A stretch of DNA of 64,000 nucleotides from an uncultured Pelagibacteraceae bacterium (GTDB lineage Bacteria > Pseudomonadota > Alphaproteobacteria > Pelagibacterales > Pelagibacteraceae), in NCBI GenBank assembly GCA_902521615.1, contig CABYSJ010000001.1:124732-188731 (forward strand), written 5' to 3'. Shown here piece after piece: positions 40,637 through 60,977 of the stretch. The position numbers were made by a program, and so were the translations under genes. Position 1 is the stretch's first letter; every line of letters begins with the position of its first letter. Under the pieces are notes generated by a model. The model saw only the letters and a list, made by a program, of their open reading frames with translations. It had not been told where the DNA came from and searched no databases.

Positions 40637-41383
40637 CTAATATGTGGATCTACCACCACTGATATCAAATACCGCAGCTGTAGAAAAAGTGTTTTCTTGT
40701 GAAGAAAGCCAGCAAACTAGTGAAGTAAACTCATGTATTTCAAGAAATCTTCCTCTTGGCACCTTTGACAGCATTCTTTGTACATGCTCTTTACTCATTT
40801 GATCTAAAATTCTAGTTTTAGCACCTGCTGGGGTGACAGCGTTTACAGCTATATCTTTGTCAGCTAATTCTTTACCCAAAGCTTTTGTCAACCCAATTGC
40901 GCCAGCTTTTCCTGAGCTATACGCGCTTGCATTTGCATTACCATCTTTGCCTGCAACGGAAGCAACATTAACAATTCTTCCATAGTTGTTTTTAATCATA
41001 TTTGGGACAATTGCTCGGCAGCAGTTGAAAGTACCCATTAAATTTATCTGGACTATTTTATTCCACATATCGACATCATACTCCCATAAAGGACCTGTAG
41101 GACCTGTTATCCCGGCATTATTGATTAAAATATCTACATTTGATTTTGAAGTTATGTCTGCAACGTTTTTCTCTACATCTTGATAATTTGATATATCAAC
41201 TATATTGTAAAATAAGTTAGGGTTTTTTACTTCATCAACTGCTGATTTAAGAAGCTTTTCATCGATATCCCATATAAACACTTTAGCACCAGACTCTAAA
41301 AATCTTTTTGCAACATCCAAACCAAACCCTTGAGCTCCACCAGTAACTACAGCTGTTCTATTTTTAAAATCAAATGTGTGCAT
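40637..41383 (-). CDS. SDR family oxidoreductase (start moved to MHTFDF); C-terminus resembles LRA5-like keto-deoxy sugar acid dehydrogenases
   Basis: TGGAQGFG, NNAGITG, YSSGK, terminal DISGGRSTY. Confidence 0.85.
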   Translation of the reverse strand: MHTFDFKNRTAVVTGGAQGFGLDVAKRFLESGAKVFIWDIDEKLLKSAVDEVKNPNLFYNIVDISNYQDVEKNVADITSKSNVDILINNAGITGPTGPLWEYDVDMWNKIVQINLMGTFNCCRAIVPNMIKNNYGRIVNVASVAGKDGNANASAYSSGKAGAIGLTKALGKELADKDIAVNAVTPAGAKTRILDQMSKEHVQRMLSKVPRGRFLEIHEFTSLVCWLSSQENTFSTAAVFDISGGRSTY

Positions 41384-41388
41384 TAAAA

Positions 41389-42846
41389 TTATTTTTTTGC
41401 TAACAAGTAGTATGTTATCCAGGCAACAAATGCACCTATTATCCAAGCATAAGATTGTAAAAACATTAAATTAGTATTCCAAATTGTTGACGCTGAAAAA
41501 ATAAATCCTAATATTAAAGAATAAACACCTTTTATATGCCAACCACCTGAATAATAATAAGCACTCTCTTTGTCTATAGAATATAGGTCTTTATTACTTA
41601 ATTCTTGATTTTTAATTAGATAATAATCAGCTGCCATCAATCCAAATAAAGGACCAAAGAAAGCACCAAAAGTATCAACAAATGATAAAATTCCTATTTG
41701 GCTCAATATAGTCAGCCAGAAGATTGCGATCAACAAACCAAAAAAAGCAATTAAATAACTGGCGCTTTTTAAACTTAATATTGAAGGAGCAAAATTTATT
41801 AGAGAGTATTGAGATGGAATGAAATTGGCAACTAAATTTGTAGAAGCTGAAGCAATTATAATAAAAAATAGAACGACTATTGTTATTTGTATATTATCAA
41901 ACTTTCCTACTATATCTGTTGGATTTGTAAAAATTCTGTCTATATCTGAAAATTTTTGATTAAGAAAAACATCAGACCCTATAACAATGAAAACAGATAA
42001 AAATGAAAAAATAATTAAATTCAAAATTAAACTTAAGTTTCCTTTTTTTAATTCTTGCTCATTTTTTACATATCTAGAAAAATCACCAAAACTAATTATT
42101 AAAATTGAAAAATAGGCAAATATTGTTCCAGCAACAGTCAATAAAGGTGCTAAATTATTAACATCTAAAAAATTATTTAAATTAAAAATATTTGAAAAAG
42201 CTTCAGTAGTTATTTTCACATCACTTAATAAAACAACAAAGAAAAAAATTAACAAACCAGCATAGACTGTCATTGCTGAAAAATTAATTATTTTCTTGTT
42301 GTACTGCATCCCAACAGTAAAAAACAAAGTCTGTAGAATAATTGTGATTATTATTGCAGACCAATCAATAATATTCATACCAAAATAATAAAAAATGAAT
42401 ATTTCCTGCTGCAATAAAGAATTGTCTATAGAAAAAATTGCTATTCTAATTAAGTAAACTAAAATTTTAGATAAAAAATAAGTTTGAATTCCAAATAAAA
42501 ATATTCCAACTAAACTTCTGATTAACCCAAAAAATTTAGCACCATTAAATCCTAGTGAGGATCTAAGCAATACTGCAAATGGTAAACCAAATTTTTGTGA
42601 AGGTTTTCCGATAATGTTTGAAAATAAATAAACAAATAAAGATCCTAATATGATTCCAAAAAAAACTACAAAAATATTTAAACTATACATTAAGTATAAG
42701 GAGGATATTAAAGAAAAACCAATTAAACTTTGTACATTAGCACCCCAAAAACAAAATAGATCTTTCCAATTCCAAGTTTTATAATTTGGATTAACTGTGA
42801 CTAAGTCCCAATTAGATAGAGAGTATTTTACTTTAGGTTGATTCAC
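41389..42846 (-). CDS. NCS1 family nucleobase:cation symporter
   Basis: About 12 TM; LRSSLGFNGA, DFSRY, STNLVANFIP, GPLFGLMAADYYL. Confidence 0.85.
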   Translation of the reverse strand: MNQPKVKYSLSNWDLVTVNPNYKTWNWKDLFCFWGANVQSLIGFSLISSLYLMYSLNIFVVFFGIILGSLFVYLFSNIIGKPSQKFGLPFAVLLRSSLGFNGAKFFGLIRSLVGIFLFGIQTYFLSKILVYLIRIAIFSIDNSLLQQEIFIFYYFGMNIIDWSAIIITIILQTLFFTVGMQYNKKIINFSAMTVYAGLLIFFFVVLLSDVKITTEAFSNIFNLNNFLDVNNLAPLLTVAGTIFAYFSILIISFGDFSRYVKNEQELKKGNLSLILNLIIFSFLSVFIVIGSDVFLNQKFSDIDRIFTNPTDIVGKFDNIQITIVVLFFIIIASASTNLVANFIPSQYSLINFAPSILSLKSASYLIAFFGLLIAIFWLTILSQIGILSFVDTFGAFFGPLFGLMAADYYLIKNQELSNKDLYSIDKESAYYYSGGWHIKGVYSLILGFIFSASTIWNTNLMFLQSYAWIIGAFVAWITYYLLAKK

Positions 42847-42871
42847 TTAATTTATTTTAAACTAATAAATT

Positions 42872-44206
42872 CTACTGTCCATATAAGAGAGTTGGTAGCC
42901 ATAAGGCAATTTTAGGAAATATGATTATTAAAATTAAGCCTATAACTTGTAGAACCATAAATTGCATCATTCCATAATAAATATCTTTTAAATCCCATTC
43001 AGGTACTACACCTTTTAAAAAATAAGCAGACAAGGCTACAGGTGGAGATAGCCAGGCGGTCTGGAGATTTACAGCGACCAATATTGCAAACCAAGTTAAA
43101 TTAAAACCTAAAGCCTCAATTAATGGTAAAAGAATTGGGACAATAATCATCACAATTGGTACCCATTCTAATGGCCAACCTAATAAAAATATTGCAACCA
43201 TAACAATTCCTAGGATTAAATATTTATTCATTTCTAATCCTAACAAAAATTCAGTTAATAAGGTTGGAGTACCAAGTCTTGCAAATACAGCCCCGAAAAA
43301 GTTTGAAGCAGCAACTAAAACCATAATTAAAGCTGTAATTTCTAAAGTTTTAACAAGTGCCTCTTGAAGTTTAGATAGAGTTAATTTTTTATATGCTAAT
43401 GAAAGCAATAAAGCTCCCATAGCACCACAACCAGCTGCTTCTGTTGGGGTTGCAAAACCAAACAATATACTACCTAATGCAGCAAAAACGAGAGCTGCAG
43501 GTGGAACTAAACCTAAGAAAAATTCAATCCAAACTTCTTTCATGCTCGCTGCCCTCATTTCCTCTGGAATTACAGGACCTAGTTTAGGATTTATCATGCA
43601 TCTTATTGTTGTGTAGCCAGCGTATAAACTTGCAAGAAGAATTCCAGGAATTATAGCTGCAGCAAATAAGTCAATTACAGGAATTTCCATAATTGGACCC
43701 ATCACAACAAGCATAATACTTGGTGGAATTAAAATTCCTAAAGTACCACCAGCTGTAATTGTGCCAGCTGCAAGTCTTACATCATAACCAGATCTATTCA
43801 TTGATTTTGCAGCCATGATTCCCAGTATGGTTACTGAGGCACCAACAATTCCTGTTGCTGCAGCAAAGATAACTGAAACAAACAATACAGCATAATACAA
43901 TGCACCTCTTACTCTAGCCAACATCATTTGAAATGATGAGAACAATCTTTCCATCAGTCCTGCTTGTTCCATCATAATGCCCATAAAGACAAAGAGCGGG
44001 ACGGCGGCGAGGGTTTGTTCAGTCATGACCATCGAGAACTGGAGGGTCATTAAATAAAAGACTAATTTTCCAAATCCTAGATACCCAAATACAAAACCTA
44101 AGAAAATTAATGTAAATGAAATTGGAAATCCGACAAAAATTGCAAAAAGCATTACTCCAACTAAAATAAAACCTAAAATGGCCGGATCAATTAATTCTGC
44201 TATCAT
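42872..44206 (-). CDS. TRAP transporter large permease (DctM)
   Basis: LAAVPLFVFMG, AAATGIVGAS, GTLGILIPPS, ATPTEAA, WLSPPVA. Confidence 0.95.
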   Translation of the reverse strand: MIAELIDPAILGFILVGVMLFAIFVGFPISFTLIFLGFVFGYLGFGKLVFYLMTLQFSMVMTEQTLAAVPLFVFMGIMMEQAGLMERLFSSFQMMLARVRGALYYAVLFVSVIFAAATGIVGASVTILGIMAAKSMNRSGYDVRLAAGTITAGGTLGILIPPSIMLVVMGPIMEIPVIDLFAAAIIPGILLASLYAGYTTIRCMINPKLGPVIPEEMRAASMKEVWIEFFLGLVPPAALVFAALGSILFGFATPTEAAGCGAMGALLLSLAYKKLTLSKLQEALVKTLEITALIMVLVAASNFFGAVFARLGTPTLLTEFLLGLEMNKYLILGIVMVAIFLLGWPLEWVPIVMIIVPILLPLIEALGFNLTWFAILVAVNLQTAWLSPPVALSAYFLKGVVPEWDLKDIYYGMMQFMVLQVIGLILIIIFPKIALWLPTLLYGQ

Positions 44207-44817
44207 TCATCTTCTCCTGGCCATTTTCCTCTTGTGGCAGCCCAATAACTTTTAAATAATTCTGAAATACCTTGGATTAGTAAAAATATTATTCCAATAA
44301 GTAGGCAACTTTTAATTGGCCACATATAGGGCATCCAGGTTGTATCCATTCCTCTTTCACCTCTTTGAATAGACTCACCTACATATCCAATAGTCATGTA
44401 AAGAAATACTATTAAGCCTGGAAAATAAAATAAAATATATAACCAAAAATCAATTGTTCCTTGATTTTTAGTTTTAAAATTTCTGTATAAAAAATCAGCT
44501 CTGATATGAACACCTTTAGAAAGTGCATAACCAGCACCCAACATAAAAAGTGCACCATATAAAAAGCGACTTATATCATAAGCCCAAATTGTTGGGGAAT
44601 GAAATAATTTTCTAGCAAGAACTTCATAAGTCATTGCAAGAATTAATGGCATTAATATCCAGCAAACAATGTTACCAACCCATTTGCTAAATTTATCTAT
44701 ATTTACAATTGAACTTGCCATCCATGGTGGCATATCACTTGGCATTTTTCCTGAACCACCTCGCCTTTCGGCAATCATTTCATCTGATATATCTAATTTA
44801 CCTGGTTCGTCTGCCAT
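44203..44817 (-). CDS. TRAP transporter small permease (DctQ)
   Basis: 4 TM; YEVLARKLF, PTIWAYD, HIRADFLY. Confidence 0.93.
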   Translation of the reverse strand: MADEPGKLDISDEMIAERRGGSGKMPSDMPPWMASSIVNIDKFSKWVGNIVCWILMPLILAMTYEVLARKLFHSPTIWAYDISRFLYGALFMLGAGYALSKGVHIRADFLYRNFKTKNQGTIDFWLYILFYFPGLIVFLYMTIGYVGESIQRGERGMDTTWMPYMWPIKSCLLIGIIFLLIQGISELFKSYWAATRGKWPGEDE

Positions 44818-44835
44818 AAAATTTTATATAAAAAA

Positions 44836-44863
44836 TTAGAGCGGACTATTAAGTCCGCTCTAA
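44836..44863 (-). terminator. Intrinsic terminator or stabilising hairpin between dctP and dctQ
   Basis: Perfect 12-bp stem ttagagcggact / agtccgctctaa with a 4-nt loop, followed by TTTTT on the minus strand. Confidence 0.85.
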
Positions 44864-44882
44864 CGTAAAAATTATTTAATGA

Positions 44883-45977
44883 TTACTTTAATGTTGCTGC
44901 GTGAGCCATTCCTAGCTTCGCATTAGACATTTGAGCACCACTCCAGAAAGGAACTGCGATATCAGCAAATTCTTTCATAGAGTCCCAAACTTCAGCAAAG
45001 AATGCATTTTTAGCTGCGTTTGTTTCCAAACTTTTCTTAGCAGCTGCCATGTATTCTGTGAAGTAATCAGAAGGTGTATCTTCTAATTTTACACCATGAA
45101 CTTCTGTAAGCTCTTTTAAAGCTTTTCCATTTTCATAGATTCTGTAACTTAGAGATTTCGCTAGAGATGCATTTGCTGCAACTTCTAAAGACTTCTTCTC
45201 ATGAGCGCTCATAGCTTCATATGTTTTTCCAGTAATATAAAAATCAGCATTTACGACTACTTGGTGTAAACCTTGTAGGTAGTAGTGCTTTAATACTTTT
45301 TGGAAACCAAACGTTAAGTCTGGTTTTGGACAACACCATTCAGCAGCATCAATAGTTCCTGCTTCTAAAGCTGGTAGAATATCTCCACCACCCATAGCAA
45401 CAGATGCTATACCGATATCTTTATATGTTTGTCCTGGAATTCCTGGAGGAGTTCTGAACTTATATTTTCTAAAGTCAGCCATATCTTTAATTGGTTTTGG
45501 AAACCAACCTAAAGCTTCAGGACCAACTGGTTGAATCATAAATCCTTTAATATCTCTTCCCATTTCTTTCCATAGTCTGTCGTATAGCTCTTTTCCTCCA
45601 CCATACTGAAACCATGATAAGAATGCGATGTTGTCAATACCAACACCACCACCTGCTACTGGCGAACCAAATAACATAGCGGCAGGGTGATCACCTGACC
45701 AATAGTGCGTCCAAGCAAATCCACAATCGATAAGTCCTTTATCAACTGCATCTAAAGTTTCTTTAACACCAACAACAGCTCCTGCAGGCATAATTTCAAA
45801 CTTAAGAGATCCACCTGTCAAAGTTGTAACAGTGTCAGTAAAGTCTTTTAACATTTTAACTTCATCAGCTTTAGTGTTAAGAACTGTCTGACATTTTAGT
45901 GTTTTTGCAGCATTAGCATTTGAAATAAATCCAAACACCATCGCAACTGCAAATAACATTGAAATGATTTTTTTCAT
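44883..45977 (-). CDS. TRAP substrate-binding protein (DctP; lactate / alpha-ketoacid-binding subfamily)
   Basis: Signal peptide, AWTHYWSG, KFRTPPG, LEAGTIDAAEW, GLHQ; strong SD AGAGAGGGA. Confidence 0.92.
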   Translation of the reverse strand: MKKIISMLFAVAMVFGFISNANAAKTLKCQTVLNTKADEVKMLKDFTDTVTTLTGGSLKFEIMPAGAVVGVKETLDAVDKGLIDCGFAWTHYWSGDHPAAMLFGSPVAGGGVGIDNIAFLSWFQYGGGKELYDRLWKEMGRDIKGFMIQPVGPEALGWFPKPIKDMADFRKYKFRTPPGIPGQTYKDIGIASVAMGGGDILPALEAGTIDAAEWCCPKPDLTFGFQKVLKHYYLQGLHQVVVNADFYITGKTYEAMSAHEKKSLEVAANASLAKSLSYRIYENGKALKELTEVHGVKLEDTPSDYFTEYMAAAKKSLETNAAKNAFFAEVWDSMKEFADIAVPFWSGAQMSNAKLGMAHAATLK

Positions 45978-46120: not shown

Positions 46121-47716
46121 ATGGATAATTTTGATTATATTATAATTGGTGCTGGATCAGCTGGATGTGTTCTTGCTAACAGAATTTCATCTAATCCTAG
46201 GAATAAAGTCTTGCTTTTAGAGGCAGGTGGTAAAGATACTAATCCATGGATACATATTCCTGGAGGGTATTTTAAAACAATGCATAATCCTGAGACAGAT
46301 TGGTGTTTTAACACTGAGGAAGAGCCTTTCTGTGATAATAGAAAGATGACTTACCCAAGAGGAAAAACACTTGGAGGAAGTTCTTCTATTAATGGAATGC
46401 TTTATATTCGAGGACAATCAAATGATTATAATTATTGGAGACAATTAGGAAATGTAGGATGGTCATGGGATGATGTGCTTCCTTATTTTAAGAAATCTGA
46501 AGATTTCCAATTTGGAGAAAATGAATTTCACGGTTCTGGCGGACCTTTAAAGGTAGAAAAAATTAGATCTACATTCAAAGTTTTAGACTTGTTTTTAGAA
46601 GCTGCAGAGGAATTTGGATATAAAAAAACTGATGATTTTAATAACGGCAATAATGAGGGAATGGGATATTTCCCTTTAACAGTAAAAAATGGTTTTAGAT
46701 GTAGCACAGCAGTTGGCTATTTAAATCCAGTAAAAAGTAGAAGTAATTTAAAAATTATAACTAAAGCTCATATCAAAAATATTGAATTCGATAATAAAAT
46801 TGCCAAAAAAGTTAATTTTTGGACTGGTGACAAGTTAAATACTGTTGAAGCAAACAGTGAAATCATTTTAAGTGCTGGTACTATTGGATCTCCACATATT
46901 CTTCAAGCTTCAGGTTTGGGGCCAGCTAAATTATTAAAACATAACGGTATTGAAGTTTTAATGGATAATAAAAATATAGGCCAAAACTTAACTGACCATC
47001 TAATGTTAAGACCTGTATATAAGATAAAAAATTTAGAAACATTAAATGACATTTATTATAGCTTTACTAAAAAAATATTTACTGGATTAAAATTTTTTTT
47101 AACACGAACTGGTCCTCTTACTGTTGGTGCTAGTTATTTGTGCGGTTTCATAAAGAGTGATCCACATTTAGAAACTCCTAACTTACAATTTCATGTTTCT
47201 CCTGCTAGTACAGATTTCTTAGGAAAATCATCGTTACACAAATTTCCTGCTTTCACACCAACCATTACTAATGTAAGACCTACTAGCAGAGGATCTATTG
47301 AACTTAAATCTTCCGATACAAGAATTCCTCCAAAGATTAAAATGAATTATCTATCTACAGATGAAGATAGAGAAATAGCAGGTAAGTCTCTTAAAATAGT
47401 AAGAAAAATAGTTATGGAGTCCAATGCCTATAAAGATTATGGACCTGAAGAATTGAGGCCAGGTATAAATATTACTGACAATGAGCAGTTAGCTGTTGAA
47501 GCGGGAAAATATGCTAATACAATTTTCCATCCTGTCAGTACTTGCAGAATGGGCAAAGATGAAAATGCAGTAGTGTCTGATCAGTTAAAGGTTCATGGAG
47601 TCAAAAACTTAAGAGTGATTGATGCATCAGTAATGCCTTATATCACCTCAGGAAATACTAATGCTCCAACAATAATGATTGCGGAAAAAGGTGCAGACAT
47701 GATACTACAGCAGTAA
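46121..47716 (+). CDS. GMC family FAD oxidoreductase (IseJ/BetA-like)
   Basis: GAGSAGC, RGKTLGGSSSING, IFHPVSTCRMG, SGNTNAPTIMIAEKG. Confidence 0.92.
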   Translation: MDNFDYIIIGAGSAGCVLANRISSNPRNKVLLLEAGGKDTNPWIHIPGGYFKTMHNPETDWCFNTEEEPFCDNRKMTYPRGKTLGGSSSINGMLYIRGQSNDYNYWRQLGNVGWSWDDVLPYFKKSEDFQFGENEFHGSGGPLKVEKIRSTFKVLDLFLEAAEEFGYKKTDDFNNGNNEGMGYFPLTVKNGFRCSTAVGYLNPVKSRSNLKIITKAHIKNIEFDNKIAKKVNFWTGDKLNTVEANSEIILSAGTIGSPHILQASGLGPAKLLKHNGIEVLMDNKNIGQNLTDHLMLRPVYKIKNLETLNDIYYSFTKKIFTGLKFFLTRTGPLTVGASYLCGFIKSDPHLETPNLQFHVSPASTDFLGKSSLHKFPAFTPTITNVRPTSRGSIELKSSDTRIPPKIKMNYLSTDEDREIAGKSLKIVRKIVMESNAYKDYGPEELRPGINITDNEQLAVEAGKYANTIFHPVSTCRMGKDENAVVSDQLKVHGVKNLRVIDASVMPYITSGNTNAPTIMIAEKGADMILQQ

Positions 47717-48309
47717 TGTTTGCAGAATTTTTTACACCTGAACAAATAGCAATAGTAACTCAAATTATTCTTATTGATTTAGTTTTAGCGGGTGACAATG
47801 CAATTATAATTGGAATGGTTGCATCTAAATTTCCAGTCGAACAAAGAAAAAAAGTAATTTTTTGGGGTATCGGTGGTGCTGTAATTTTAAGAATAATACT
47901 GACCCTACTTACAGCTTATCTGCTACAAATCACGGGTTTAAGATTAATTGGGGGATTATTATTACTTTATATTGTTTACAAGCTTTATGTAGATGTGATC
48001 AAAGGTTCAGAAACAGAAGAGGATGTAAAAGTAGACAATTCAAGTTTTCTTAAAGCAATTTGGACTGTTTTACTGGCTGATTTTACAATGAGTTTAGATA
48101 ATGTTTTGGGTGTAGCCGGTGCAGCTGGTGATCACTATGGACTTCTTGTTTTTGGGTTAGTTTTATCAATTATTTTAATGGCAACTGCAGCAACTCTAAT
48201 TTCTGAATGGATTAAAAAATATAGATGGATAGCTTGGCTTGGATTATTAGCTATTTTAATTGTAGCTGTTGAGTTGATTTACACAGATATTAAAATATTA
48301 TTCTTTTAA
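47716..48309 (+). CDS. TerC/YjbE family membrane protein
   Basis: DLVLAGDNAIII, ADFTMSLDNVLGVAGAA; coupled to the GMC stop (TAATG). Confidence 0.9.
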   Translation: MFAEFFTPEQIAIVTQIILIDLVLAGDNAIIIGMVASKFPVEQRKKVIFWGIGGAVILRIILTLLTAYLLQITGLRLIGGLLLLYIVYKLYVDVIKGSETEEDVKVDNSSFLKAIWTVLLADFTMSLDNVLGVAGAAGDHYGLLVFGLVLSIILMATAATLISEWIKKYRWIAWLGLLAILIVAVELIYTDIKILFF

Positions 48310-49067
48310 TGTATCTTCAAAAAATAAATCTAAAAAACAAATATGCTTTAGTTACAGGTGCAGGTAAAGGACTAGGAAGAGCATGTTCAATTGCATTAGC
48401 TGAGGCAGGTGCAACGGTTATAGCTTTAAGCAGAACATCTTCAGACCTAAATAAATTAGAAAAGGATATCAGAAAAGTTAAAGGTAAAATTATAAAGGTT
48501 TTATGTGATGTAATGAACTATGAGGATTTAAAACAAAAATTAGATAAAATTAAAATTATTGATGTTTTGGTAAATAATGCTGGAACTAATATTCCAGAGC
48601 CCTTTGAAAAAATTAAACAAAAAAATATGAATTACCTTGTAGATTTAAATCTTAAAGCAGCATTTAACGTGGCTCAACTTGTAGTAAAAAAGATGCTTAA
48701 AAATAAACAAAGACCTGGTTCAATTATAAATATGTCATCACAGCTCGGTCATGTTGGTATGGGTGGAAGAAATGTATACAATATGACTAAATTTGGAATT
48801 GAGGGATTGACTAAAGGTATGGGTGTTGAATTAGCTAAAAAAAATATCAGAGTTAACACCGTAGCACCTACCTTTGTTGAAACACCAATGGTTAAAAAAT
48901 TTTTTAAAAACAAAAAATTTAAAAAATTAGCCCTTGGGAATATTCCTATGGGTAAAGCAGCTACTGAAAGCGATGTTGCTACAACTGTTTGTTTTTTAGC
49001 ATCATCAGCATCTTCAATGATAACTGGAACATCAATAATTATAGATGGTGGATGGACAGCTCAATAA
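48309..49067 (+). CDS. SDR oxidoreductase, HpsO-like
   Basis: TGAGKGLG, NNAGTNIPEPF, SSQLGHVG, YNMTK, VAPTFVETP, DGGWTAQ; these match the HpsO subfamily as I recall it. Confidence 0.8.
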   Translation: MYLQKINLKNKYALVTGAGKGLGRACSIALAEAGATVIALSRTSSDLNKLEKDIRKVKGKIIKVLCDVMNYEDLKQKLDKIKIIDVLVNNAGTNIPEPFEKIKQKNMNYLVDLNLKAAFNVAQLVVKKMLKNKQRPGSIINMSSQLGHVGMGGRNVYNMTKFGIEGLTKGMGVELAKKNIRVNTVAPTFVETPMVKKFFKNKKFKKLALGNIPMGKAATESDVATTVCFLASSASSMITGTSIIIDGGWTAQ

Positions 49068-51153: not shown

Positions 51154-51192
51154 GAAAGAAGATTACGATAATTGGTTGTTATTTTAAAGATT

Positions 51193-52977: not shown

Positions 52978-53088
52978 AAAACTAGAACCTCTCTAAAGTG
53001 TAATTATACTATTTATAAAATTCGTTTGTTAATTTGTGCGATTAATATATAAGTTTTTACGAATTTCAAACAAACAAATCGACACGAT

Positions 53089-53373
53089 ATGGCAACAGAT
53101 ATAATCATACATGATAAAAAAGACAACGTAGGAGTAGTTGTTATTGAAAAAATCACTCCTAAACAAGACTGTGCTTGCTGGATAATGGAAGACGACAGTT
53201 CAACTAATATTCAATCCGTAGATGAAATACCTTTAGGTCATAAAATTGCAATGGTTGACCTTAAAGAGGGAGATACTATTTTAAAGTATGGTCACGATAT
53301 TGGTAAAGTTGTTAAATCAATCAAAAAAGGTGAGCATGTCCATGTTCACAATGTAAAAACAAAGAAGTGGTAA
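53089..53373 (+). CDS. suyA: (2R)-sulfolactate sulfo-lyase alpha subunit (SAF domain)
   Basis: [38 protein letters not shown]; precedes suyB. Confidence 0.88.
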
Positions 53374-53377: not shown

Positions 53378-54544
53378 ATGGAAATTCCAAAAAGCTTTTT
53401 AGGTTATAAAAGAGAAAACGGCAGAGCCGGAACAAGAAATCATGTAATTATTTTGCCAGTTGATGACATTTCAAACGCATGTGCAGAGGCAGTTGCAAAT
53501 AACATTAAAGGCACAATTGCTCTTCCTCATTCTTACGGAAGACTTCAGTTTGGTGCAGATTTAGAGCTTCATTTTAGAACAATGATAGGGACTGGATGTA
53601 ATCCAAACGTTGCAGCAGTAATTGTTATTGGTATTGAACCGAAATGGACAAAGAAAATTGTAGATGGAATTGCTAAAACTGGAAAACCTGTTGAAGGATT
53701 TCATATTGAGCGTACAGGTGACATTGGTACGACAATGAAAGCATCAAAAAAAGCACAAGAATTTGTGATGTGGGCTTCAGAAAAACAAAGAGAGGAATGT
53801 CCTTTAAGTGATTTATGGATCTCAGTTAAGTGTGGAGAATCAGATACTACTTCAGGATTAGCTGCAAACCCAACTGTTGGAAACTTAATGGACAAACTTG
53901 AGCCATTAGGTGTTCACTTATGTTTTGGTGAAACATCTGAATTAACTGGTGCAGAACAAGTTTGTGCAACTAGAGGGGCTACTAAAGAAGCTTCTGAAAA
54001 ATTTATGAAAACTTGGAGCTCTTATAATGATTTTATTTTAAAAGAAGCAACGGATGATCTTTCTGAAAGTCAACCAACAGCTGGAAATATAGCTGGAGGA
54101 CTTACAACAATTGAAGAAAAAGCTTTTGGTAATTTTCAAAAAATTGGAAATTGTAAATTTATTGATGTTCTTGAGCCAGCTGAAGAACCAACTAAAGGAA
54201 AAGGTTTATATTTTATGGACACATCATCTGCTGCTGCAGAATGTGTGACGCTTCAAGCTGCTGCTGGTTTTAATATTCATTTATTTCCAACTGGACAAGG
54301 TAATATCGTTGGAAATCCAATTGAACCTGTTGTTAAATTAACAGCTAATCCATTAACTGTAAAAGGTATGGGAGAGCATATTGATTGTGATGTTTCAAAA
54401 ATTCTTTCAAGAGAAATGAATTTATCTGAAGCAGGTGATGAATTAATTAAAACGACACTTAGAGTAGCAAACGGTAGATTAACTTGTGCTGAAGCTTTGG
54501 GTCATAAAGAATTTGTTATGACTAAACTTTACAGAAGTGCTTAA
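53378..54544 (+). CDS. suyB: (2R)-sulfolactate sulfo-lyase beta subunit
   Basis: [46 protein letters not shown], terminal TKLYRSA. Confidence 0.9.
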
Positions 54545-54560: not shown

Positions 54561-55628
54561 ATGAATATTAAAAAATACCTGGTTGTATTACCAGGTATTA
54601 TATTGGCATTTGTTCTTTACACTTTATCTCAAGGTTTCAATAATATTCTTGGTATTGAACTATTAGGCTATGAAAAAAGTCCAATATCTACTGCAATGAT
54701 AGCTATTTTATTAGGAATGTTTTTCGGAAATATTTTTCAAATAAGAGAAATTTTTTTAAAAGGATTAGATTTTACACAAAAATATATTCTTAAACTAGGT
54801 ATTATTTGTCTAGGTATTCAATTGAAGCCATTTGAATTTTTAGAATTCGGAAAAATAGCAATTCCATTAATTATAATCTGTATAATCAGTGTGTTAATAG
54901 TAATTAAAGTTCTTATTAAAAGATTAAAAATACCAACAAGAATGGCTTACTTGATATCAATAGGGAGTACTGTCTGTGGTACTACTGCAATTATGGCTAC
55001 TGCTCCTGTCATCGGTGCAAAAAAAAACGAGGTGTCGTATGCAATTGCTAATATTACATTGTTTGGAATACTTTCGATGCTTATTTATCCTTATTTTGCT
55101 AACTTTTATTTTGAAAGTGAGCCTTTACTAATTGGATTGTTTTTAGGAACCTCAATCCATGAAACCTCTCAAGTTGCAGCTGCAGGATTGATTTATGATC
55201 AGCAGTTTAATAGTCCTGAAACTTTAAATATCGCAACAGTAACGAAATTAATAAGGAATACCTTTTTGATTATCATGATCCCTTTATTTGCATTTCTTTA
55301 TAATCGAGGAAAAACTACAGAAAAGAAATACTCAATAATAGATATTTTTCCTTACTTTGTATTAGGATTTGTAGCAATGATAATAATTAGAAATTTAGGT
55401 GATCTAATGTATTCAAATAATTACGAATGGTTGGTTATAATTGAGGGTATTAAATTGTCCTCAAAAATATTTTTAACAATGGCAATGGCAGCAATAGGGC
55501 TTTCAACTAACTTAAAAGAACTTAAAAATATGGGCTACAAACCTTTTATAGTTGGTTTTATAGGTATGGCAACGGTAGGATTGTTTAGTATTACAACTAT
55601 CGAATTATATTTAAATTTTTTTAATTAA
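54561..55628 (+). CDS. YeiH / putative sulfate exporter family (SuyZ-like)
   Basis: VCGTTAIMA, GTSIHETSQV, TKLIRN, AMAAIGL; directly follows suyB. Confidence 0.88.
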   Translation: MNIKKYLVVLPGIILAFVLYTLSQGFNNILGIELLGYEKSPISTAMIAILLGMFFGNIFQIREIFLKGLDFTQKYILKLGIICLGIQLKPFEFLEFGKIAIPLIIICIISVLIVIKVLIKRLKIPTRMAYLISIGSTVCGTTAIMATAPVIGAKKNEVSYAIANITLFGILSMLIYPYFANFYFESEPLLIGLFLGTSIHETSQVAAAGLIYDQQFNSPETLNIATVTKLIRNTFLIIMIPLFAFLYNRGKTTEKKYSIIDIFPYFVLGFVAMIIIRNLGDLMYSNNYEWLVIIEGIKLSSKIFLTMAMAAIGLSTNLKELKNMGYKPFIVGFIGMATVGLFSITTIELYLNFFN

Positions 55629-56704
55629 GATTTGACTAATAATTTTTTTCTAAAGTTTGAAATAAATCGTCTTATAAAAGCTGCTCCAACACCTAAAGTA
55701 ATTGCAAACATAATTGTAAATAGCCCATAAAAGAAAGGCATTTCTTTAGAAAAATCAATTATAAATTGAGAAAAGAAATTTAAATCTGAACTAGTTGCTT
55801 TAGCAGTTCCATTTATAATTTTGTCTGCAAAAAACGTGTCGTATGCTATCGCTATACCTACTATCAGTAATAAAATTGCTAATAAGGCTCTTAAACCGGA
55901 ACTATCGATTCTTTCTCCTAATTTTTGCCCAACCTGAACTCCTATTATAGATCCTACAACTAACATAAGAACTAGAAATAAATCTATAGACCCGTAATTA
56001 AATGAATGAAGAAAAGTAACAACCACACTTACAAAAATTGTTACAAATAAAGATGTACCAGGAACTAATTTAGTAGGCATTTTAATTATATAAATCATAG
56101 CAGGAACTAAAATAAAAGCACCTCCGATCCCCATAATGGCTGCAATAAATCCAACTAATAAACCAATTATAATTGGTGTAAAAATACTCTCATATAATTT
56201 TGACTTTGGAAATCTCATTCTTAATGGAAGACCATGTATCCAATAATGAACATGTAATTTTTTTTTAACTACAACGTTTCTTTTTGCTTTATCTATTTCA
56301 CCCAAACTCTCAACCAACATTAAAGTTCCGATTATTGCCAATATATACATATAAGCTAGAGAGATAACCGTATCAATTTTTCCGATACCTTTAAAATATG
56401 TAAAAGTGTAAATTCCTAAAGAAGTTCCAATTACACCTCCAATTACAATCATTGAACCCATTTTATAATCTAAAGTATTTTTTAAATAATGCGTAGTAGA
56501 TCCAGAAACTGAAGTAGCTAAGATATTATTTGCTTCATTTGCAACAGCGTATGCAGGAGGTATTCCTAAAAAAATTAAAAAAGGTGTCATCAAAAACCCA
56601 CCACCAACACCAAATAAACCTGAAAGTACTCCAACAATTGCGCTTAATAAAAGTATTTCGATAGGGTTAACAAAAACTTGAGCTATCGGTAAAAATACTT
56701 CCAT
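55625..56704 (-). CDS. TauE/SafE (TSUP) sulfite exporter family with C-terminal extension
   Basis: GLFGVGGGFLMTP, MGIGGAFILVP, GSIIGVQVG. Confidence 0.88.
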   Translation of the reverse strand: MEVFLPIAQVFVNPIEILLLSAIVGVLSGLFGVGGGFLMTPFLIFLGIPPAYAVANEANNILATSVSGSTTHYLKNTLDYKMGSMIVIGGVIGTSLGIYTFTYFKGIGKIDTVISLAYMYILAIIGTLMLVESLGEIDKAKRNVVVKKKLHVHYWIHGLPLRMRFPKSKLYESIFTPIIIGLLVGFIAAIMGIGGAFILVPAMIYIIKMPTKLVPGTSLFVTIFVSVVVTFLHSFNYGSIDLFLVLMLVVGSIIGVQVGQKLGERIDSSGLRALLAILLLIVGIAIAYDTFFADKIINGTAKATSSDLNFFSQFIIDFSKEMPFFYGLFTIMFAITLGVGAAFIRRFISNFRKKLLVKS

Positions 56705-56716: not shown

Positions 56717-56736
56717 AAGTTGTTAAAAAACAACTT
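56717..56736 (-). terminator. Weak hairpin between the small ORF and tauE
   Basis: 8-bp inverted repeat aagttgtt / aacaactt with a 4-nt loop, followed by U-rich sequence on the minus strand. Confidence 0.35.
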
Positions 56737-56869
56737 AGTTAAAAGTGATAAAAGTTCCAACTAAAATCACTCCCCAGTAAGCTGTTAAGCTTGCTATAAT
56801 TCCTGCCTTAATAAATGTGGTTTTAAAATTTGAGAGTTTATTGATAATTTTTACGTTAGAAAGTAACAT
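56735..56869 (-). CDS. Small single-TM protein, 44 aa (below cutoff)
   Basis: Manual translation MLLSNVKIINKLSNFKTTFIKAGIIASLTAYWGVILVGTFITFN. Confidence 0.55.
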   Translation of the reverse strand: MLLSNVKIINKLSNFKTTFIKAGIIASLTAYWGVILVGTFITFN

Positions 56870-56877
56870 TTAATTCG

Positions 56878-56905
56878 TCAATACACCCACAACGAAATTT
56901 GTCAA
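56878..56905 (-). promoter_or_regulatory. Candidate sigma70 promoter for the small ORF and tauE
   Basis: Perfect TTGACA (56905-56900), 16-nt spacer, TATTGA (56883-56878). Confidence 0.35.
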
Positions 56906-56937
56906 ACAATAATTTATTATTAAGCAATTTTTTTTGC

Positions 56938-57288
56938 CTAGTAGATGGTAGCCCCAAAAACTTTAATTGTATCGTCCTCAACTCCTAACACCAACCTTCC
57001 AAGGAACTCTCCTGGGATCTCTTTATTTGTCTGTTTGATCAAAACAGTTATGTGATCTCCTCTTCTTAGGCATCCAAAAGGTTCGAAAGTCTCTTTAAGA
57101 TTAGTGATAAGCTTATTATTAGCCCACTGTTTACCAAGTTCTACTTCGTTAGCACCAAAAAGCATTTGGGTAGAGAAATCTCTAGTAAACCCTCCATAAT
57201 CTTTTAGATTAGATGATTTAACCAAGTTATCCCAAATAGGTTTGGCTAATTCATATATTTCATCATCTGATTTAGATAAAATATCCAT
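56938..57288 (-). CDS. Hypothetical protein downstream of aprA
   Basis: 116 aa, clean start and stop, 21 nt after the aprA stop. Confidence 0.8.
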   Translation of the reverse strand: MDILSKSDDEIYELAKPIWDNLVKSSNLKDYGGFTRDFSTQMLFGANEVELGKQWANNKLITNLKETFEPFGCLRRGDHITVLIKQTNKEIPGEFLGRLVLGVEDDTIKVFGATIY

Positions 57289-57309
57289 TTGATTTAATTA
57301 AATTATCTA

Positions 57310-59169
57310 CTACGAAGCTTTTTTCTTTTCGTTCTCATCCACTATATGGTAGACAGGAACTTTCTCCATACTAAACTTGCCAGTTTTAGGGTCACGTCTA
57401 GAAACTGTTAGACAATGCCAATTTTCATCATCAAGCTTCATATGATCACCTCTATAATAGTAGCCTGGCCACCTAGTCTCTTCTCTAAATAAAGTATGTT
57501 CCGTTACACACTGAGAAGTCAAAGCTCTATGTTTCAACTCCCAAGCTCTCATAAGCTGGTGATAATCTTCAGCTCCAACATGCTCCAAGTCCTCTTGTAG
57601 CCAATCTAATAACTCAAGTCCTCTTTTCAGCATATTACCATTAGTCATGTAATTTGAGGTAATTCCACCCACGTATTCATCCATGATTTTCTGTAATCTT
57701 TGAAGACCTTGGATTGGAGATATATAGCTAGGAGAAACTGTTCCACCAGTAATCTCATTTCTAGCAACTGTGTAGTTTTCTAGTGGTTTGTAAACTGCAC
57801 TTTTGAAATCCTCACACTGTTTATCTGAAACTTTAACCCCCTCGGCTTTTTTGTCTTCAATGTATTTAACAGCAGCTTTTGCAGCTAATCTACCCTCTGT
57901 AAAAGATCCAGAGGAAAACTTATGGGCACTTCCACCAACTGTATCTCCTGCACCAAATAAACCATCAATAGTTAGCATTCTGTTATAACCCCAAAAATAT
58001 TCTGGTGGTGATAAATCCTCAGGGCCGCTCACCCATGCGCCAGAACAAGTAGCATGTGAACCCATTACATAAGGTTCAGATGTAGTTAATTCTGGATTTG
58101 TGTATTTTGGATCAATATTTTGAGATGCCCAAACAACAGCTTGACCAACAGTCATTCCTAAAAAATTTTCCCAACCTACTGTTTCTAAATGCGGATCTTG
58201 GAAAGCCTCAGTAGTTACCATATGGATTGGTCCACCGCCTGCGGCTACTTCCTGAATAAACGCATGATTTCTCAAACAAGTTGGTGTTGGATGATGATCA
58301 ATGTATTCACCAACTAATTCTTTAGTTTGGTCATACCATTTTTTCTCATAGTTTTCACCATTTGCATTTTGTGTGTATGTTTTTAAATGAAGGAAATATG
58401 CTCCAACTGGTCCATATCCATCTTTAAATCTACATAATACAATTCTGTTTTCCATTTGAGTCATCTTTGCACCTGCTGCAATAGGCAATGCATATGCAGA
58501 TCCATTACTCCATGGTGCATACCAAGTTCTACCCATTCCTTCTCCAACCGCTCTTGGTTTAAAGATGTGTGAAGCTCCACCAGCAGCAACAATTACTGCT
58601 TTTGCTCTAAATACATGAAAATCACCTGTTCTCATATTAAACCCAACTGCTCCACCAATTCTATTGCCTTGAGACTCGTCCATTAAAAGATGAGTAATCA
58701 TTATTCTGTTATAAATTTTATCTGCAGATTTTTTTGCTGCCTCTGCTACAATCGGTTTGTAACTTTCACCATGGATCATAATCTGCCATTTTCCCTCTCT
58801 TAAGTATCTTCCAGTTTCTTCGTTCTTCATCATAGGTAAGCCCCATTCATCAAACATATGAACTGTAGAGTCTACGTGACGAGCCATGTCATAACCTAAA
58901 TCTTCTCTTACCATTCCCATTAAATCATTTCTTGCATATCTAACATGATCTTCTGGTTGGTTTTCACCCCACTGCATTCCCATGTAACAGTTAATCGCAT
59001 AAAGTCCCTGAGCAACAGCTCCACTTCTATCAATGTTAGCTTTTTCAACACAAACAATTTTCATGTCTCTACCCCAGTGTCTTGCTTCAAAGGTAGCACC
59101 AGTACCGGCCATACCTCCACCAACAACTAATATATCACAATCTTCGTAATGAGTTTTATGACTAGCCAT
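57310..59169 (-). CDS. aprA: Adenylylsulfate reductase alpha subunit
   Basis: EKANIDRSGAVAQGL, WQIMIHGESYKP, WYAPWSNGSAY, RFKDGYGPVGA, HKFSSGS. Confidence 0.97.
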   Translation of the reverse strand: MASHKTHYEDCDILVVGGGMAGTGATFEARHWGRDMKIVCVEKANIDRSGAVAQGLYAINCYMGMQWGENQPEDHVRYARNDLMGMVREDLGYDMARHVDSTVHMFDEWGLPMMKNEETGRYLREGKWQIMIHGESYKPIVAEAAKKSADKIYNRIMITHLLMDESQGNRIGGAVGFNMRTGDFHVFRAKAVIVAAGGASHIFKPRAVGEGMGRTWYAPWSNGSAYALPIAAGAKMTQMENRIVLCRFKDGYGPVGAYFLHLKTYTQNANGENYEKKWYDQTKELVGEYIDHHPTPTCLRNHAFIQEVAAGGGPIHMVTTEAFQDPHLETVGWENFLGMTVGQAVVWASQNIDPKYTNPELTTSEPYVMGSHATCSGAWVSGPEDLSPPEYFWGYNRMLTIDGLFGAGDTVGGSAHKFSSGSFTEGRLAAKAAVKYIEDKKAEGVKVSDKQCEDFKSAVYKPLENYTVARNEITGGTVSPSYISPIQGLQRLQKIMDEYVGGITSNYMTNGNMLKRGLELLDWLQEDLEHVGAEDYHQLMRAWELKHRALTSQCVTEHTLFREETRWPGYYYRGDHMKLDDENWHCLTVSRRDPKTGKFSMEKVPVYHIVDENEKKKAS

Positions 59170-59639
59170 TAATAATAAACTCCTTTTTTAAAGGACTCCT
59201 TAGGAACACTCGGAAGCTCTCCATCTATATTTAAACCTTCTGGTTCAGTATATAATCTTTGTGAATTTATCTCTCCTTGATTAGGTTTGTCCCCATCTGC
59301 TAATTTTGGAATAAATTTTCCCCAAGGCTTAGTTGTAATTGGAGATACGAAATTTTTTTCAGTTCCATTTCTAAATTTAATTTTCCAAGAGATTGTTCCT
59401 TTTTCTTCTTCCCTTCTTACCCTAACGCTGTGTCCCATTGGAGCAAAGTCTGCATATCCTCTAACATCAATAGCGTGGTTAGGACAAGCTTTGACACAAG
59501 AATAACATTCCCAACAAAAGTTAGGTTCTATATTTTTTGCACGTCTAATGTTTTCATCAATGTGCATTATATCTGATGGGCAAATATCTACACAATGACC
59601 ACAGCCATCACATCTTGTCATATATACAAATGTTGACAT
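59169..59639 (-). CDS. aprB: Adenylylsulfate reductase beta subunit
   Basis: CDGCGHCVDICPSDIM, CWECYSCVKACP; SD AAGGAGAGAG. Confidence 0.97.
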   Translation of the reverse strand: MSTFVYMTRCDGCGHCVDICPSDIMHIDENIRRAKNIEPNFCWECYSCVKACPNHAIDVRGYADFAPMGHSVRVRREEEKGTISWKIKFRNGTEKNFVSPITTKPWGKFIPKLADGDKPNQGEINSQRLYTEPEGLNIDGELPSVPKESFKKGVYY

Positions 59640-59672
59640 ATTATTCTCTCTCCTTTTTAAATTTTATCATAA

Positions 59673-60473
59673 TTAATAATGTTTAGGTTGTTCTCTTTTA
59701 ATACCCAAACCAAATTGTTCAGGTGCATCAGCAGGTGGTGGTAAATTATCTCTTGAACCATCTGCTTCAGCTAAATTCTTTTGTATTGCTGCGCCAGGTT
59801 TATAAAACATGTGTGCAAACTTAGACCAATAAACTCCTCCAAATAAAACTAGGTTTGAAACCACAAATAATACTAAAAATAAATTTGCATCCCATCTTCC
59901 TTCTAAATTTAAACCTTGAAGATATGACCAAATAAATCCGGTTAAGGAAGTTGCAATCAGAGCTAATACAAATAAATCTGCTTTAATAATTCTGTACCAA
60001 GGTTGCGCTTCAGAATAAACATCAACTCTTAAGAAGAACCAAAACCATGATCCACCCAAGATCGTCATCAAAGCACCAATATGCCAAATCATTGGCCAAA
60101 TAGCCGGAGTTTCTGAATTTGCTGATGAATAACAAAATATCATCACAACAGAGCCAACCCAAAACAATATAGTACCGTACATTCCAAGAACATGTGCTAC
60201 TCTTCTTTTACCAGCCCCTAATTCTGATGTAGTTCCGATGTCGTATGCAATTGTTTTTGAAACAACTGCAATTCTTTCACCAGTTGACAGTTCTTTGGTC
60301 GCATTTTTTTTTGCTTTCTTGGCATTTTCAAAAAAGTATTTCACATTCTTTTTATGAATTATGTCTAAAAGAGTTCCTCCAACAATTAATAAAACCATTA
60401 ACACCACAAAACCTTGCATAACTATAGATGGAACTGTTTCAGCTAGAATTGAAAAAGGATTTGTTGCAAACAT
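59673..60473 (-). CDS. aprM: Adenylylsulfate reductase membrane anchor
   Basis: Multi-TM protein before aprB; RRVAHVLGMYG, WSKFAHMFYKPGAA, EADGSRDNLP. Confidence 0.9.
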   Translation of the reverse strand: MFATNPFSILAETVPSIVMQGFVVLMVLLIVGGTLLDIIHKKNVKYFFENAKKAKKNATKELSTGERIAVVSKTIAYDIGTTSELGAGKRRVAHVLGMYGTILFWVGSVVMIFCYSSANSETPAIWPMIWHIGALMTILGGSWFWFFLRVDVYSEAQPWYRIIKADLFVLALIATSLTGFIWSYLQGLNLEGRWDANLFLVLFVVSNLVLFGGVYWSKFAHMFYKPGAAIQKNLAEADGSRDNLPPPADAPEQFGLGIKREQPKHY

Positions 60474-60578
60474 TTTTAATACACTTGTAAAATAAAATTG
60501 AATTAATTTAAGGTTTTCTATTCTAGAAATTTATATAGTTCAACCAAAAGTATTGGTCAATTTGTCTTTAATAACAAC

Positions 60579-60977
60579 TCAGAGTTTACGTTTGTAGTGT
60601 TGTTTGTTGGGAATCACTGACCTAACACCGCCCTGAGGATTCTCGACATCCCCTTTTCTTCTTGGAATTAAATGAATGTGGCAATGCATAATTGATTGTC
60701 CTGCAGATTTTCCTGCATTTGTGCCTATATTAAAACCTTTAACACTAGAATCTTGTTTTAAAATTTTTTCTTTAGTTTTTAAAATTAACTCGTTACATGC
60801 CTGAATTTCTTCTTTAGTAAGCTCAAAGTATGTCTCTACATGTCTTTTAGGAACGATAAGACTATGAAATTCTGAGACTGGATAGCTATCTATGGATGAG
60901 TAAGCCAATTGATTTTCAAACTGCAGCTCTTCTTTTCTAATTTTGCAAAATATACAAGGGTTGTTTGGATCTCTCAT
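60579..60977 (-). CDS. HIT family nucleotide hydrolase/transferase
   Basis: CIFC, YPVSEFHSLIVPKRH, GFNIG.NAGKSAGQ, HCHIH histidine triad. Confidence 0.93.
   Translation of the reverse strand: MRDPNNPCIFCKIRKEELQFENQLAYSSIDSYPVSEFHSLIVPKRHVETYFELTKEEIQACNELILKTKEKILKQDSSVKGFNIGTNAGKSAGQSIMHCHIHLIPRRKGDVENPQGGVRSVIPNKQHYKRKL

Follow-up and report, generated by a model that had tools for sequence, protein, structure and literature searches.

A probable organosulfonate desulfonation and sulfite-disposal region of SAR11 in an uncultured Pelagibacteraceae genome

We analyzed a stretch of 64,000 nucleotides from an uncultured Pelagibacteraceae bacterium (assembly GCA_902521615.1, contig CABYSJ010000001.1, positions 124,732 to 188,731), hereafter the window, and in particular its positions 40637-60977. 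From gene families, conserved synteny and transcription in situ, we estimate at about 80% the probability that this locus is the conserved organosulfonate desulfonation and sulfite-disposal region of SAR11 (Pelagibacteraceae), here carried by an uncultured genome. The locus consists of an invariant, highly transcribed core (xsc, suyAB, tauE, aprMBA and two small unnamed genes) and of a flexible uptake and oxidation block. An original prediction, made from the sequence, had described it as a regulator-free neighbourhood lacking canonical steps, which might be filled by uncharacterised genes. When the open reading frames (ORFs) of the window were scanned with Pfam and NCBIfam profiles, all the families that it had named were found where it had placed them; its gene list was correct in its families and incomplete, as an NCS1 permease, a TerC/YjbE protein, an M23 peptidase, a conserved 116-aa protein (u116) and a 44-aa ORF had been omitted. 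Overall, the window is ordinary for SAR11 and largely already known, and it holds no new kind of system.

The window Xsc protein is 100% identical to that of SAR11 (uncultured Pelagibacteraceae) single-cell genomes, and the window DNA shares 90-94% identity with its nearest relatives among the reference single-cell genomes, being identical to none; an exact-sequence look-up of the Xsc protein returned no match on record. The GC content lies between 22 and 37% throughout and is about 30% overall. For the comparison, relatives were collected through the window Xsc. An Xsc relative was encoded by 567 of the 600 matched stretches, and the best 80 were retained as loci centred on xsc with up to 10 kb on each side (labelled L001 and so on), 76 of the 80 being of SAR11 type. 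Gene-presence counts refer to the 48 full-length loci.

Two desulfonation activities are predicted in the core. Xsc (51193-52977, minus strand) matched the sulfoacetaldehyde acetyltransferase model TIGR03457 with 963 bits against a cut-off of 676, contains the TPP_enzyme_N, TPP_enzyme_M and TPP_enzyme_C domains and is 78% identical to the xsc product of Sinorhizobium meliloti. The divergent genes suyA (53089-53373, plus strand; 94 aa) and suyB (53378-54544, plus strand; 388 aa) encode the putative small and large subunits of a (2R)-sulfolactate sulfo-lyase. SuyA was assigned by similarity to the SuyA proteins of known clusters (49% identity with Cupriavidus pinatubonensis, 46% with Paracoccus versutus) and its ORF matches an N-terminal stretch of galactarate dehydratase, while SuyB carries GD_AH_second and GD_AH_C (284 bits) and is 65% and 68% identical to the proteins of the same two organisms, both taken from hpsNOP-suyAB clusters. 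The pair thus presents the two-subunit split of the UxaA/GarD dehydratase fold, small subunit then large. In the Cupriavidus reference cluster hpsN and hpsO bear these names from the Prokaryotic Genome Annotation Pipeline, and the Paracoccus cluster has the equivalent genes without those names. From these similarities, Xsc would split sulfoacetaldehyde into acetyl phosphate and sulfite (C2 desulfonation), and SuyAB would split (2R)-sulfolactate into pyruvate and sulfite (C3 desulfonation). In Pelagibacteraceae, aprAB, suyAB and xsc have been described as core or near-core genes, AprAB being thought to clear sulfite (PMC12636525; PMC5069961), and SAR11 SuyAB proteins have been found in metaproteomes (10.1101/2024.12.10.627767). 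The 111-nt gap between xsc and suyA contains a promoter-like site for xsc (53003-53032, minus strand; TTAACA, an 18-nt spacer and TATAAT, 11/12 matches), a pattern match only, and in a promoter and terminator scan of the region the total site counts were not above those of shuffled sequence.

The sulfite released by both enzymes would be met by an adenosine 5'-phosphosulfate (APS) reductase and by exporters encoded next to them. AprA, the alpha subunit (57310-59169, minus strand), reached 992 bits with TIGR02061 against a cut-off of 642, and AprB, the iron-sulfur beta subunit (59169-59639, minus strand), 188 bits with TIGR02060 against 136. The preceding gene (59673-60473, minus strand; 266 aa) lies 33 nt upstream of aprB; its product matched no Pfam family, contains about 4-5 hydrophobic segments and, by its position, is the putative membrane anchor AprM of a lineage-I APS reductase. 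In lineage I of the sulfur-oxidiser Apr proteins, P. ubique included, aprM always stands directly before aprBA (PMC2211403). The domain survey of the window ORFs (at least 100 aa; at least 80-90 aa from 36 kb onward) detected no Qmo-like gene and neither an ATP-sulfurylase (Sat) nor a GalT-type APS:phosphate adenylyltransferase (APAT) domain, only a generic HIT protein. A TauE/SafE-family sulfite exporter (55625-56704, minus strand; TauE, PF01925, 154 bits against 32.6) is present in 47 of the full-length loci. A YeiH-family putative sulfate exporter (54561-55628, plus strand; Cons_hypoth698, PF03601, 228 bits against 24.5) is strain-variable and begins 17 nt past suyB, the SuyZ/TauZ position; it shares 26% identity with P. 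versutus SuyZ and with S. meliloti TauZ, and in P. versutus the gene occupies the same place after suyB. Sulfite would then either leave through TauE or be oxidised by AprBA, with AMP, to APS, the electrons being relayed to the membrane by AprM; sulfate would exit through the SuyZ/TauZ-type YeiH exporter in genomes having yeiH.

Two small genes accompany aprMBA and tauE. u116 (56938-57288, minus strand), directly downstream of aprA and unassigned in function, had no Pfam or NCBIfam match. It is kept in 47 of the full-length loci, with 46 invariant columns among 26 diverse copies, and a copy of 64% identity adjoins aprA in a non-SAR11 alphaproteobacterial locus (L080, 18566-18931). A single-sequence AlphaFold2 model had low confidence (pLDDT 66) and gave weak NTF2-like matches only, so that u116 may possibly adopt an NTF2-like fold. 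The idea that u116 corresponds to the NTF2-family gene of the Limimaricola tau cluster was rejected, as the two have no similarity. The second gene, an ORF of 44 aa that had not been annotated (56735-56869, minus strand), lies between u116 and tauE; it encodes a single transmembrane helix, has no family match and is overlaid by RNA contigs. Its C-terminal motif, WGVIL(V/F)GTF, was observed at the same site in more than 40 SAR11 loci, following a variable N-terminus.

Across 76 xsc-centred SAR11 loci the gene order is repeated. The common arrangement runs pabB-pabA-pabC-HIT-aprM-aprB-aprA-u116-(44-aa ORF)-tauE-(yeiH)-suyB-suyA-xsc-(DAO), then a variable insert of 0-7.9 kb, then M23-SDR2-TerC-GMC-dctP-dctQ-dctM-(NCS1-SDR1). 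Xsc, SuyAB, TauE, u116 and AprMBA are encoded in 47 or 48 of the 48 full-length SAR11 loci. YeiH and DAO were each found in 17, and SDR1, at 40% identity or more, in 6. The TRAP-GMC block was present in at least half of the loci, a lower bound, since inserts push the block outside the 10-kb range. Because the core is kept in nearly every locus and the other side is flexible, the neighbourhood is a clade-wide structure and not a peculiarity of the window genome. The window itself carries the rarer GMC allele class plus the optional DAO, YeiH, NCS1 and SDR1 genes. Two further features of this variability were observed. The insertion site between xsc/DAO and the M23 gene (49852-51193 in the window) holds an insert of 0 to about 7.9 kb and was seen in L002, L005, L006, L030, L041 and others. 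In addition, among genomes whose Xsc is 99-100% identical (L001, L002, L003, L070), GMC, YeiH and AprM each fall into two divergent allele classes at one site (97% against about 62%, 95% against 64% and 97% against 68% identity, respectively), which suggests recombination between deeply diverged alleles.

The core is also transcribed in the sea. Marine metatranscriptomes contain 34-40% of the words sampled from the region, and RNA contigs from four such runs were placed along the locus with an identity of at least 92%. As a measure of expression, contig depth is poor, and divergent alleles map badly (the window GMC gene is 62% identical to the common allele); read with this caution, it was 7,000-117,000 for dctP, 15-480 for dctQM, hundreds to thousands for xsc, suyAB and aprMBA (500-7800 for aprMBA) and tens to hundreds for tauE. 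In GMC, SDR2, DAO, yeiH, HIT and pabC it did not exceed a few tens, with 0-7 for DAO, 0-5 for HIT and similar values for pabC. Since SAR11 has almost no regulators, expression of the locus would be essentially constitutive.

Uptake is encoded by a transporter of the tripartite ATP-independent periplasmic (TRAP) type, whose genes dctP, dctQ and dctM form one operon-type set on the minus strand recognised by the Pfam DctP, DctQ and DctM families: the solute-binding protein DctP (44883-45977, 97 bits), the small permease DctQ (44203-44817, 81 bits) and the large permease DctM of the HpsM/IseM type (42872-44206; TIGR00786, 271 bits against a cut-off of 268), which is 90-100% identical among SAR11 loci. 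An NCS1-family permease follows (41389-42846, minus strand; Transp_cyt_pur, 134 bits). The order DctP-DctQ-DctM-NCS1 equals that of SAR11_0864, SAR11_0865 and SAR11_0868 in Candidatus Pelagibacter ubique HTCC1062 (PMC5069961, PMC2704228, PMC11452348), so that the window DctP is the putative orthologue of SAR11_0864, a protein that binds isethionate and both (R/S) enantiomers of 2,3-dihydroxypropane-1-sulfonate (DHPS; PMC11485210, PMC13335735). At low concentrations, isethionate and DHPS would be captured by a very abundant periplasmic DctP and then imported through DctQM. In a PDB sequence search the nearest DctP relatives were keto-acid, lactate or sorbitol/mannitol binders (E of about 1e-32), a result uninformative for sulfonates. 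The NCS1 permease is, by gene order, the counterpart of SAR11_0868 (PucI/CytX), which has been described as a candidate importer of hydroxymethylpyrimidine (HMP) or nucleobases (PMC11452348), and it probably stands outside sulfonate metabolism. The depth over the binding-protein gene was 100 to 1000 times that over the permease genes. A terminator-like scan detected, between dctP and dctQ (44835-44864, minus strand), a GC-containing hairpin of 13 bp with a T-run behind it. This hairpin is probably an attenuator or mRNA stabiliser, which fits the large excess of binding-protein mRNA over permease mRNA, and the corresponding intergenic region of HTCC1062 was listed among candidate structured-RNA regions (PMC2704228).

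The oxidation genes lie on the other side of dctP. A BetA-like GMC flavoprotein alcohol dehydrogenase (46121-47716, plus strand; GMC_oxred_N and GMC_oxred_C; NF002550 at 582 bits, below the cut-off of 605) diverges from dctP over a 143-nt gap. In Ruegeria pomeroyi the isethionate genes are arranged iseR-iseM-iseL-iseK-iseJ, the dehydrogenase gene adjoining that of the binding protein (PMC4334477). The window GMC gene occupies this iseJ-like position beside its binding-protein gene. With IseJ, which we take to be a GMC-type enzyme, as the model, GMC is most likely the candidate isethionate dehydrogenase of the locus and would convert isethionate to sulfoacetaldehyde. Known layouts would then account for import, for the oxidation of isethionate, for the two desulfonations and for the two exporters, the regulators of canonical clusters and pta being absent, and the C2 route from isethionate through sulfoacetaldehyde to Xsc would be canonical in the window except for pta.

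The role of the other oxidoreductases is less definite. SDR2 (48309-49067, plus strand; adh_short_C2, 188 bits), a short-chain dehydrogenase like gluconate 5-dehydrogenase and GolD, is kept in synteny with TerC and GMC; its substrate is possibly a hydroxy- or oxo-sulfonate. PDB sequence searches with SDR2 and GMC gave generic matches only. The DAO-family FAD oxidoreductase (49849-51153, minus strand; DAO, 137 bits), 40 nt downstream of xsc, is a plausible candidate for an amine or amino-sulfonate oxidoreductase, encoded by an optional and poorly transcribed gene; a PDB sequence search with it found nothing at E<1e-5. SDR1 (40637-41383, minus strand; adh_short, 181 bits) is a strain-variable flank gene. 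It matched PDB 6D9Y at E=2e-77, and two more close PDB entries, 9JVE and 9KQ1, were found; 6D9Y has been called a putative L-2-keto-3-deoxyrhamnonate (L-KDR) 4-dehydrogenase whose basic pocket would take an anionic group (PMC11199699). SDR2 and the strain-variable DAO and SDR1 would probably route other hydroxy- or amino-sulfonates into sulfoacetaldehyde or sulfolactate. The substrates of DctP, GMC, SDR2 and DAO, like the direction of AprBA and the specificities of the exporters, are ones that we infer. Neither short-chain dehydrogenase was retained as HpsO, as SDR2 and SDR1 are 27% and 25% identical to C. pinatubonensis HpsO, a level generic between enzymes of this family.

The absences on which the original prediction was built were then considered. 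Its statement that hpsN, hpsP and pta are not in the window was borne out, as tblastn with S. meliloti Pta and with the HpsN and HpsP proteins from the Cupriavidus and Paracoccus clusters gave no window match at E<1e-3. Its statements on sat, tpa and transcription factors agree with the domain survey, in which no Histidinol_dh, Zn-dependent alcohol dehydrogenase, PTA, class-III aminotransferase, ATP-sulfurylase or DNA-binding domain was found in the surveyed ORFs (in the nuoA-N block, nuoN and nuoG were scanned and the other twelve ORFs assigned by order and size). Intergenic gaps of 105-233 nt are too short for a regulator gene, and Rfam detected only three tRNAs in the window and no riboswitch or other structured RNA. 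The lack of a regulator among about 60 window genes is no more than chance expectation, and it is unremarkable in a clade whose genomes carry very few of them (PMC12636525). The absence of sat, already noted for HTCC1062 and most SAR11, and the scarcity of regulators are both published SAR11 traits (PMC5069961, PMC10356861, PMC12636525).

The hps genes were observed in sister loci. In five loci of a sister subclade (L035, L036, L042, L057, L075), an hpsN-like Histidinol_dh gene (446 bits with Pfam) stands directly after dctM; its product shares 55-56% identity with the HpsN proteins from the Cupriavidus and Paracoccus clusters. NCBIfam calls this gene only hisD-like, and the HpsN assignment is one of similarity and context. 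In L035, L036 and L042 the next gene encodes a Zn-dependent alcohol dehydrogenase 37-39% identical to HpsP. The hpsN-like/hpsP-like stretch of L035 (18729-21046) lies at the site where the window holds NCS1 and SDR1. Liu et al. described SAR11 homologues of hpsO, hpsP and hpsN as scattered and not clustered, and the proteins of HTCC1002 and HIMB5 act on DHPS with the expected stereospecificity (PMC11131964). For the taurine step, tpa/toa genes and Tpa peptides have been reported for SAR11 (10.1101/2024.12.10.627767, PMC10356861). The original prediction had offered two options, steps located elsewhere or a route made of the orphan genes. The first is supported, extended to steps absent clade-wide, because of the sister-subclade hps genes, the scattered homologues, the reported tpa/toa genes and the absence of sat from most SAR11; the second received no positive support. 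The missing regulators and the few missing textbook genes are thus typical of streamlined SAR11 and provide no evidence of a new pathway.

The second option was nevertheless weighed in its strongest form. In this non-canonical streamlined route, HIT would turn APS into sulfate and ADP or AMP in place of Sat, DAO would deaminate taurine, cysteate or cysteinolate in place of Tpa, and GMC or SDR2 would replace HpsN, HpsP or SlcC. We regard it as unlikely. The HIT-family nucleotide hydrolase/transferase (60579-60977, minus strand; Pfam HIT, 65 bits) does stand directly upstream of aprM in 46 of the 58 loci with enough flank for this count, and in L057 and L058, which lack pabBAC, the HIT gene is found between tauE and suyB. 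HIT enzymes attack AMP-X compounds, and some hydrolyse or phosphorolyse APS; the PDB relatives of the window protein, generic matches of the Hint/Fhit type, include an Ap4A phosphorylase, and most SAR11 lack sat. However, HIT overlaps pabC by 4 nt, its sequence is generic, and it is absent from 10 of the 58 loci, all of which keep aprMBA. Its contig depth resembles that of pabC and contrasts with that of aprMBA, and this hundred-fold step between aprM and HIT is notable because both genes diverge similarly between subclades; the RNA data therefore argue against HIT acting with aprMBA. In the L035 subclade, pabBAC-HIT is replaced as a unit by a CADD-family gene related to para-aminobenzoate (pABA) and a small nucleotidyltransferase-like gene, which suggests that HIT travels with the folate module and leaves its link to the sulfite module doubtful. 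A homologue search with HIT recovered near-identical SAR11 metagenome sequences only and no distant contexts, and a literature search found no paper tying a HIT protein or APAT to SAR11.

The replacement block itself (L035, 2632-3706) comprises a TIGR04305 gene at 300 bits and a 127-aa HxGH nucleotidyltransferase-like gene. It was also observed in L036, L037, L042, L044, L050, L057, L058 and L075, and the exchange looks to be a non-orthologous substitution for pABA synthesis at this position.

The DAO part of this route has some context in its favour. DAO follows xsc closely and an RNA contig bridges the junction, and its relatives (35% identity) adjoin TRAP and RidA genes, one of them within the sulfonate island of P. 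versutus pTAV3; a more distant FAD oxidoreductase of the family (22%) lies upstream of xsc in Limimaricola. Against this, DAO occurs in about one third of the loci and is barely transcribed, and for SAR11 both Tpa peptides and tpa/toa genes at other genomic sites have been reported. The existence of hpsN and hpsP homologues in SAR11 speaks likewise against a substitution by GMC or SDR2, and GMC was rejected as an HpsN replacement, as the subclade with hpsN retains GMC too. A narrower proposal, that at least one of the conserved unassigned genes near aprMBA (HIT, u116 or the 44-aa ORF) frees sulfate from APS without ATP sulfurylase, for example HIT as an APS phosphorylase or sulfohydrolase, is in our view a long shot; if true, it would give the most abundant marine heterotroph a full path from sulfite to sulfate that needs no sat.

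Several observations weigh against reading the locus as one sulfonate region. The likeness of GMC to IseJ draws on position and on the GMC family taken for IseJ, and the closest plasmid homologues of GMC (50% identity) adjoin Liv-type ABC transporters and are silent on sulfonates. The orthology of DctP and SAR11_0864 is drawn from gene order and from locus tags in the literature. SDR2 is just 27% identical to HpsO of the Cupriavidus and Paracoccus clusters, the generic level. Depth over GMC, SDR2, DAO and YeiH is low, perhaps in part because diverged alleles miss the 92% mapping threshold. No sulfonate link is evident for TerC, M23 and NCS1, which are found within the block, so that proximity in a compact genome is weak functional evidence. 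Finally, taurine-fed SAR11 cultures have not been demonstrated to excrete sulfate (PMC10356861), and the oxidative role of AprMBA is still inferred for that reason. What becomes of APS without sat and of acetyl phosphate without pta in the window, and whether sulfate is actually released, are clade-wide questions that were already recognised.

In another alternative, the two halves of the locus would be mere neighbours by descent in a compact genome, with TRAP-GMC-TerC-SDR2-M23 uncoupled from xsc-suyAB-tauE-apr, the transporter serving another anion and GMC and SDR2 acting on non-sulfonated alcohols. The interleaved unrelated genes, the variable insert that divides the halves, transcript levels that differ by orders of magnitude between adjacent genes, the keto-acid and lactate ligands of the closest solved DctP relatives and the amino-acid-type ABC transporters beside plasmid GMC relatives would all be compatible with such an arrangement. 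We nevertheless hold it to be quite improbable: SAR11_0864, the presumed HTCC1062 counterpart of DctP, binds isethionate and DHPS, the sister subclade has HpsN-like (five loci) and HpsP-like (three loci) genes attached to the TRAP set, and the oxidation products of isethionate and DHPS are the exact substrates of Xsc and SuyAB. A reductive, assimilatory AprMBA making sulfite from APS can be set aside: AprBA is reversible in vitro (PMC5069961), but sat, cysDN, cysH and cysIJ are lacking and SAR11 requires reduced sulfur (PMC5069961, PMC10356861), the enzyme belongs to sulfur-oxidiser lineage I with AprM (PMC2211403), its genes are fixed beside two sulfite-producing enzymes and a sulfite exporter, and apr transcripts drop under sulfur limitation (PMC5069961).

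Among the closest systems already described is the HTCC1062 locus around SAR11_0864-SAR11_0868 and aprMBA (Clifton et al. 2024; Meyer & Kuever 2008; Smith et al. 2016), with which the window locus shares the lineage, the order of binding protein, permeases and NCS1, the lineage-I aprM-aprB-aprA arrangement, the absence of sat and of a local regulator, and the reported core of xsc, suyAB and aprAB. The window genome differs in being uncultured and in carrying the rarer GMC allele with the optional DAO, YeiH, NCS1 and SDR1, the two being likened by gene order and locus tags. As in R. pomeroyi (iseR-iseMLK-iseJ and xsc-pta), the TRAP genes adjoin a dehydrogenase gene and sulfoacetaldehyde would go to Xsc; in contrast, the window has neither IseR nor pta, and the SAR11 TRAP binding protein falls in another cluster (cluster 3, PMC13335735) and also binds DHPS. 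The sat-aprMBA systems of Allochromatium vinosum and Thiobacillus denitrificans (Apr lineage I) have the same aprM-aprB-aprA order, and the window AprA and AprB pass the equivalog models. Unlike these sulfur oxidisers, the window lacks ATP sulfurylase, and its host is a heterotroph in which sulfite would come from sulfonates and not from reduced inorganic sulfur. Isethionate dissimilation in R. pomeroyi was reportedly treated by Weinitschke et al. in 2010.

The C. pinatubonensis cluster for DHPS and sulfolactate degradation is arranged hpsR-hpsN-hpsO-hpsU(MFS)-hpsP-suyAB, and P. versutus pTAV3 (L087) has yeiH after suyAB (the suyAB-suyZ layout), as in the window. The rhizobial (Sinorhizobium) and Limimaricola clusters run xsc-yeiH-pta. 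Compared to Cupriavidus and Paracoccus, the window is without hpsN, hpsP and a LacI or GntR regulator, its uptake is of the TRAP and not the MFS or ABC type, and sulfite would be handled by AprMBA and not by a sulfite oxidase or dehydrogenase. The pTAV3 island (670-698 kb) contains hpsP-hpsO-hpsN, an ABC transporter, suyAB-yeiH, pyruvate carboxylase, transhydrogenase and sulfite oxidase genes, and continues with a cupin gene, the DAO gene mentioned above (35% to the window DAO) and a TRAP unit with unassigned substrate. In plasmid tblastn searches, AprA gave a single, unannotated match, and the best match of DctP (37% identity) lay in an unrelated context.

The remaining genes have no evident part in this metabolism. 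Two syntenic passengers flank SDR2: a TerC/YjbE-family membrane protein, a putative metal transporter (47716-48309, plus strand; TIGR03717, 207 bits against a cut-off of 135), and an M23 peptidoglycan metallopeptidase (48989-49852, plus strand; Peptidase_M23, 104 bits), whose true start probably lies downstream of the listed TTG. Housekeeping genes make up the remainder of the window: dxr, cdsA, uppS, frr, tsf, rpsB, dnaE, lolCD, proS and RNase J, together with coaX, birA, nuoA-N, lon, clpXP and tig.

In the surface ocean, much of the turnover of taurine, isethionate and DHPS is due to SAR11, and the locus encodes the predicted enzymes that release their sulfur. The hps genes that appeared to be missing come and go at one site between SAR11 subclades.

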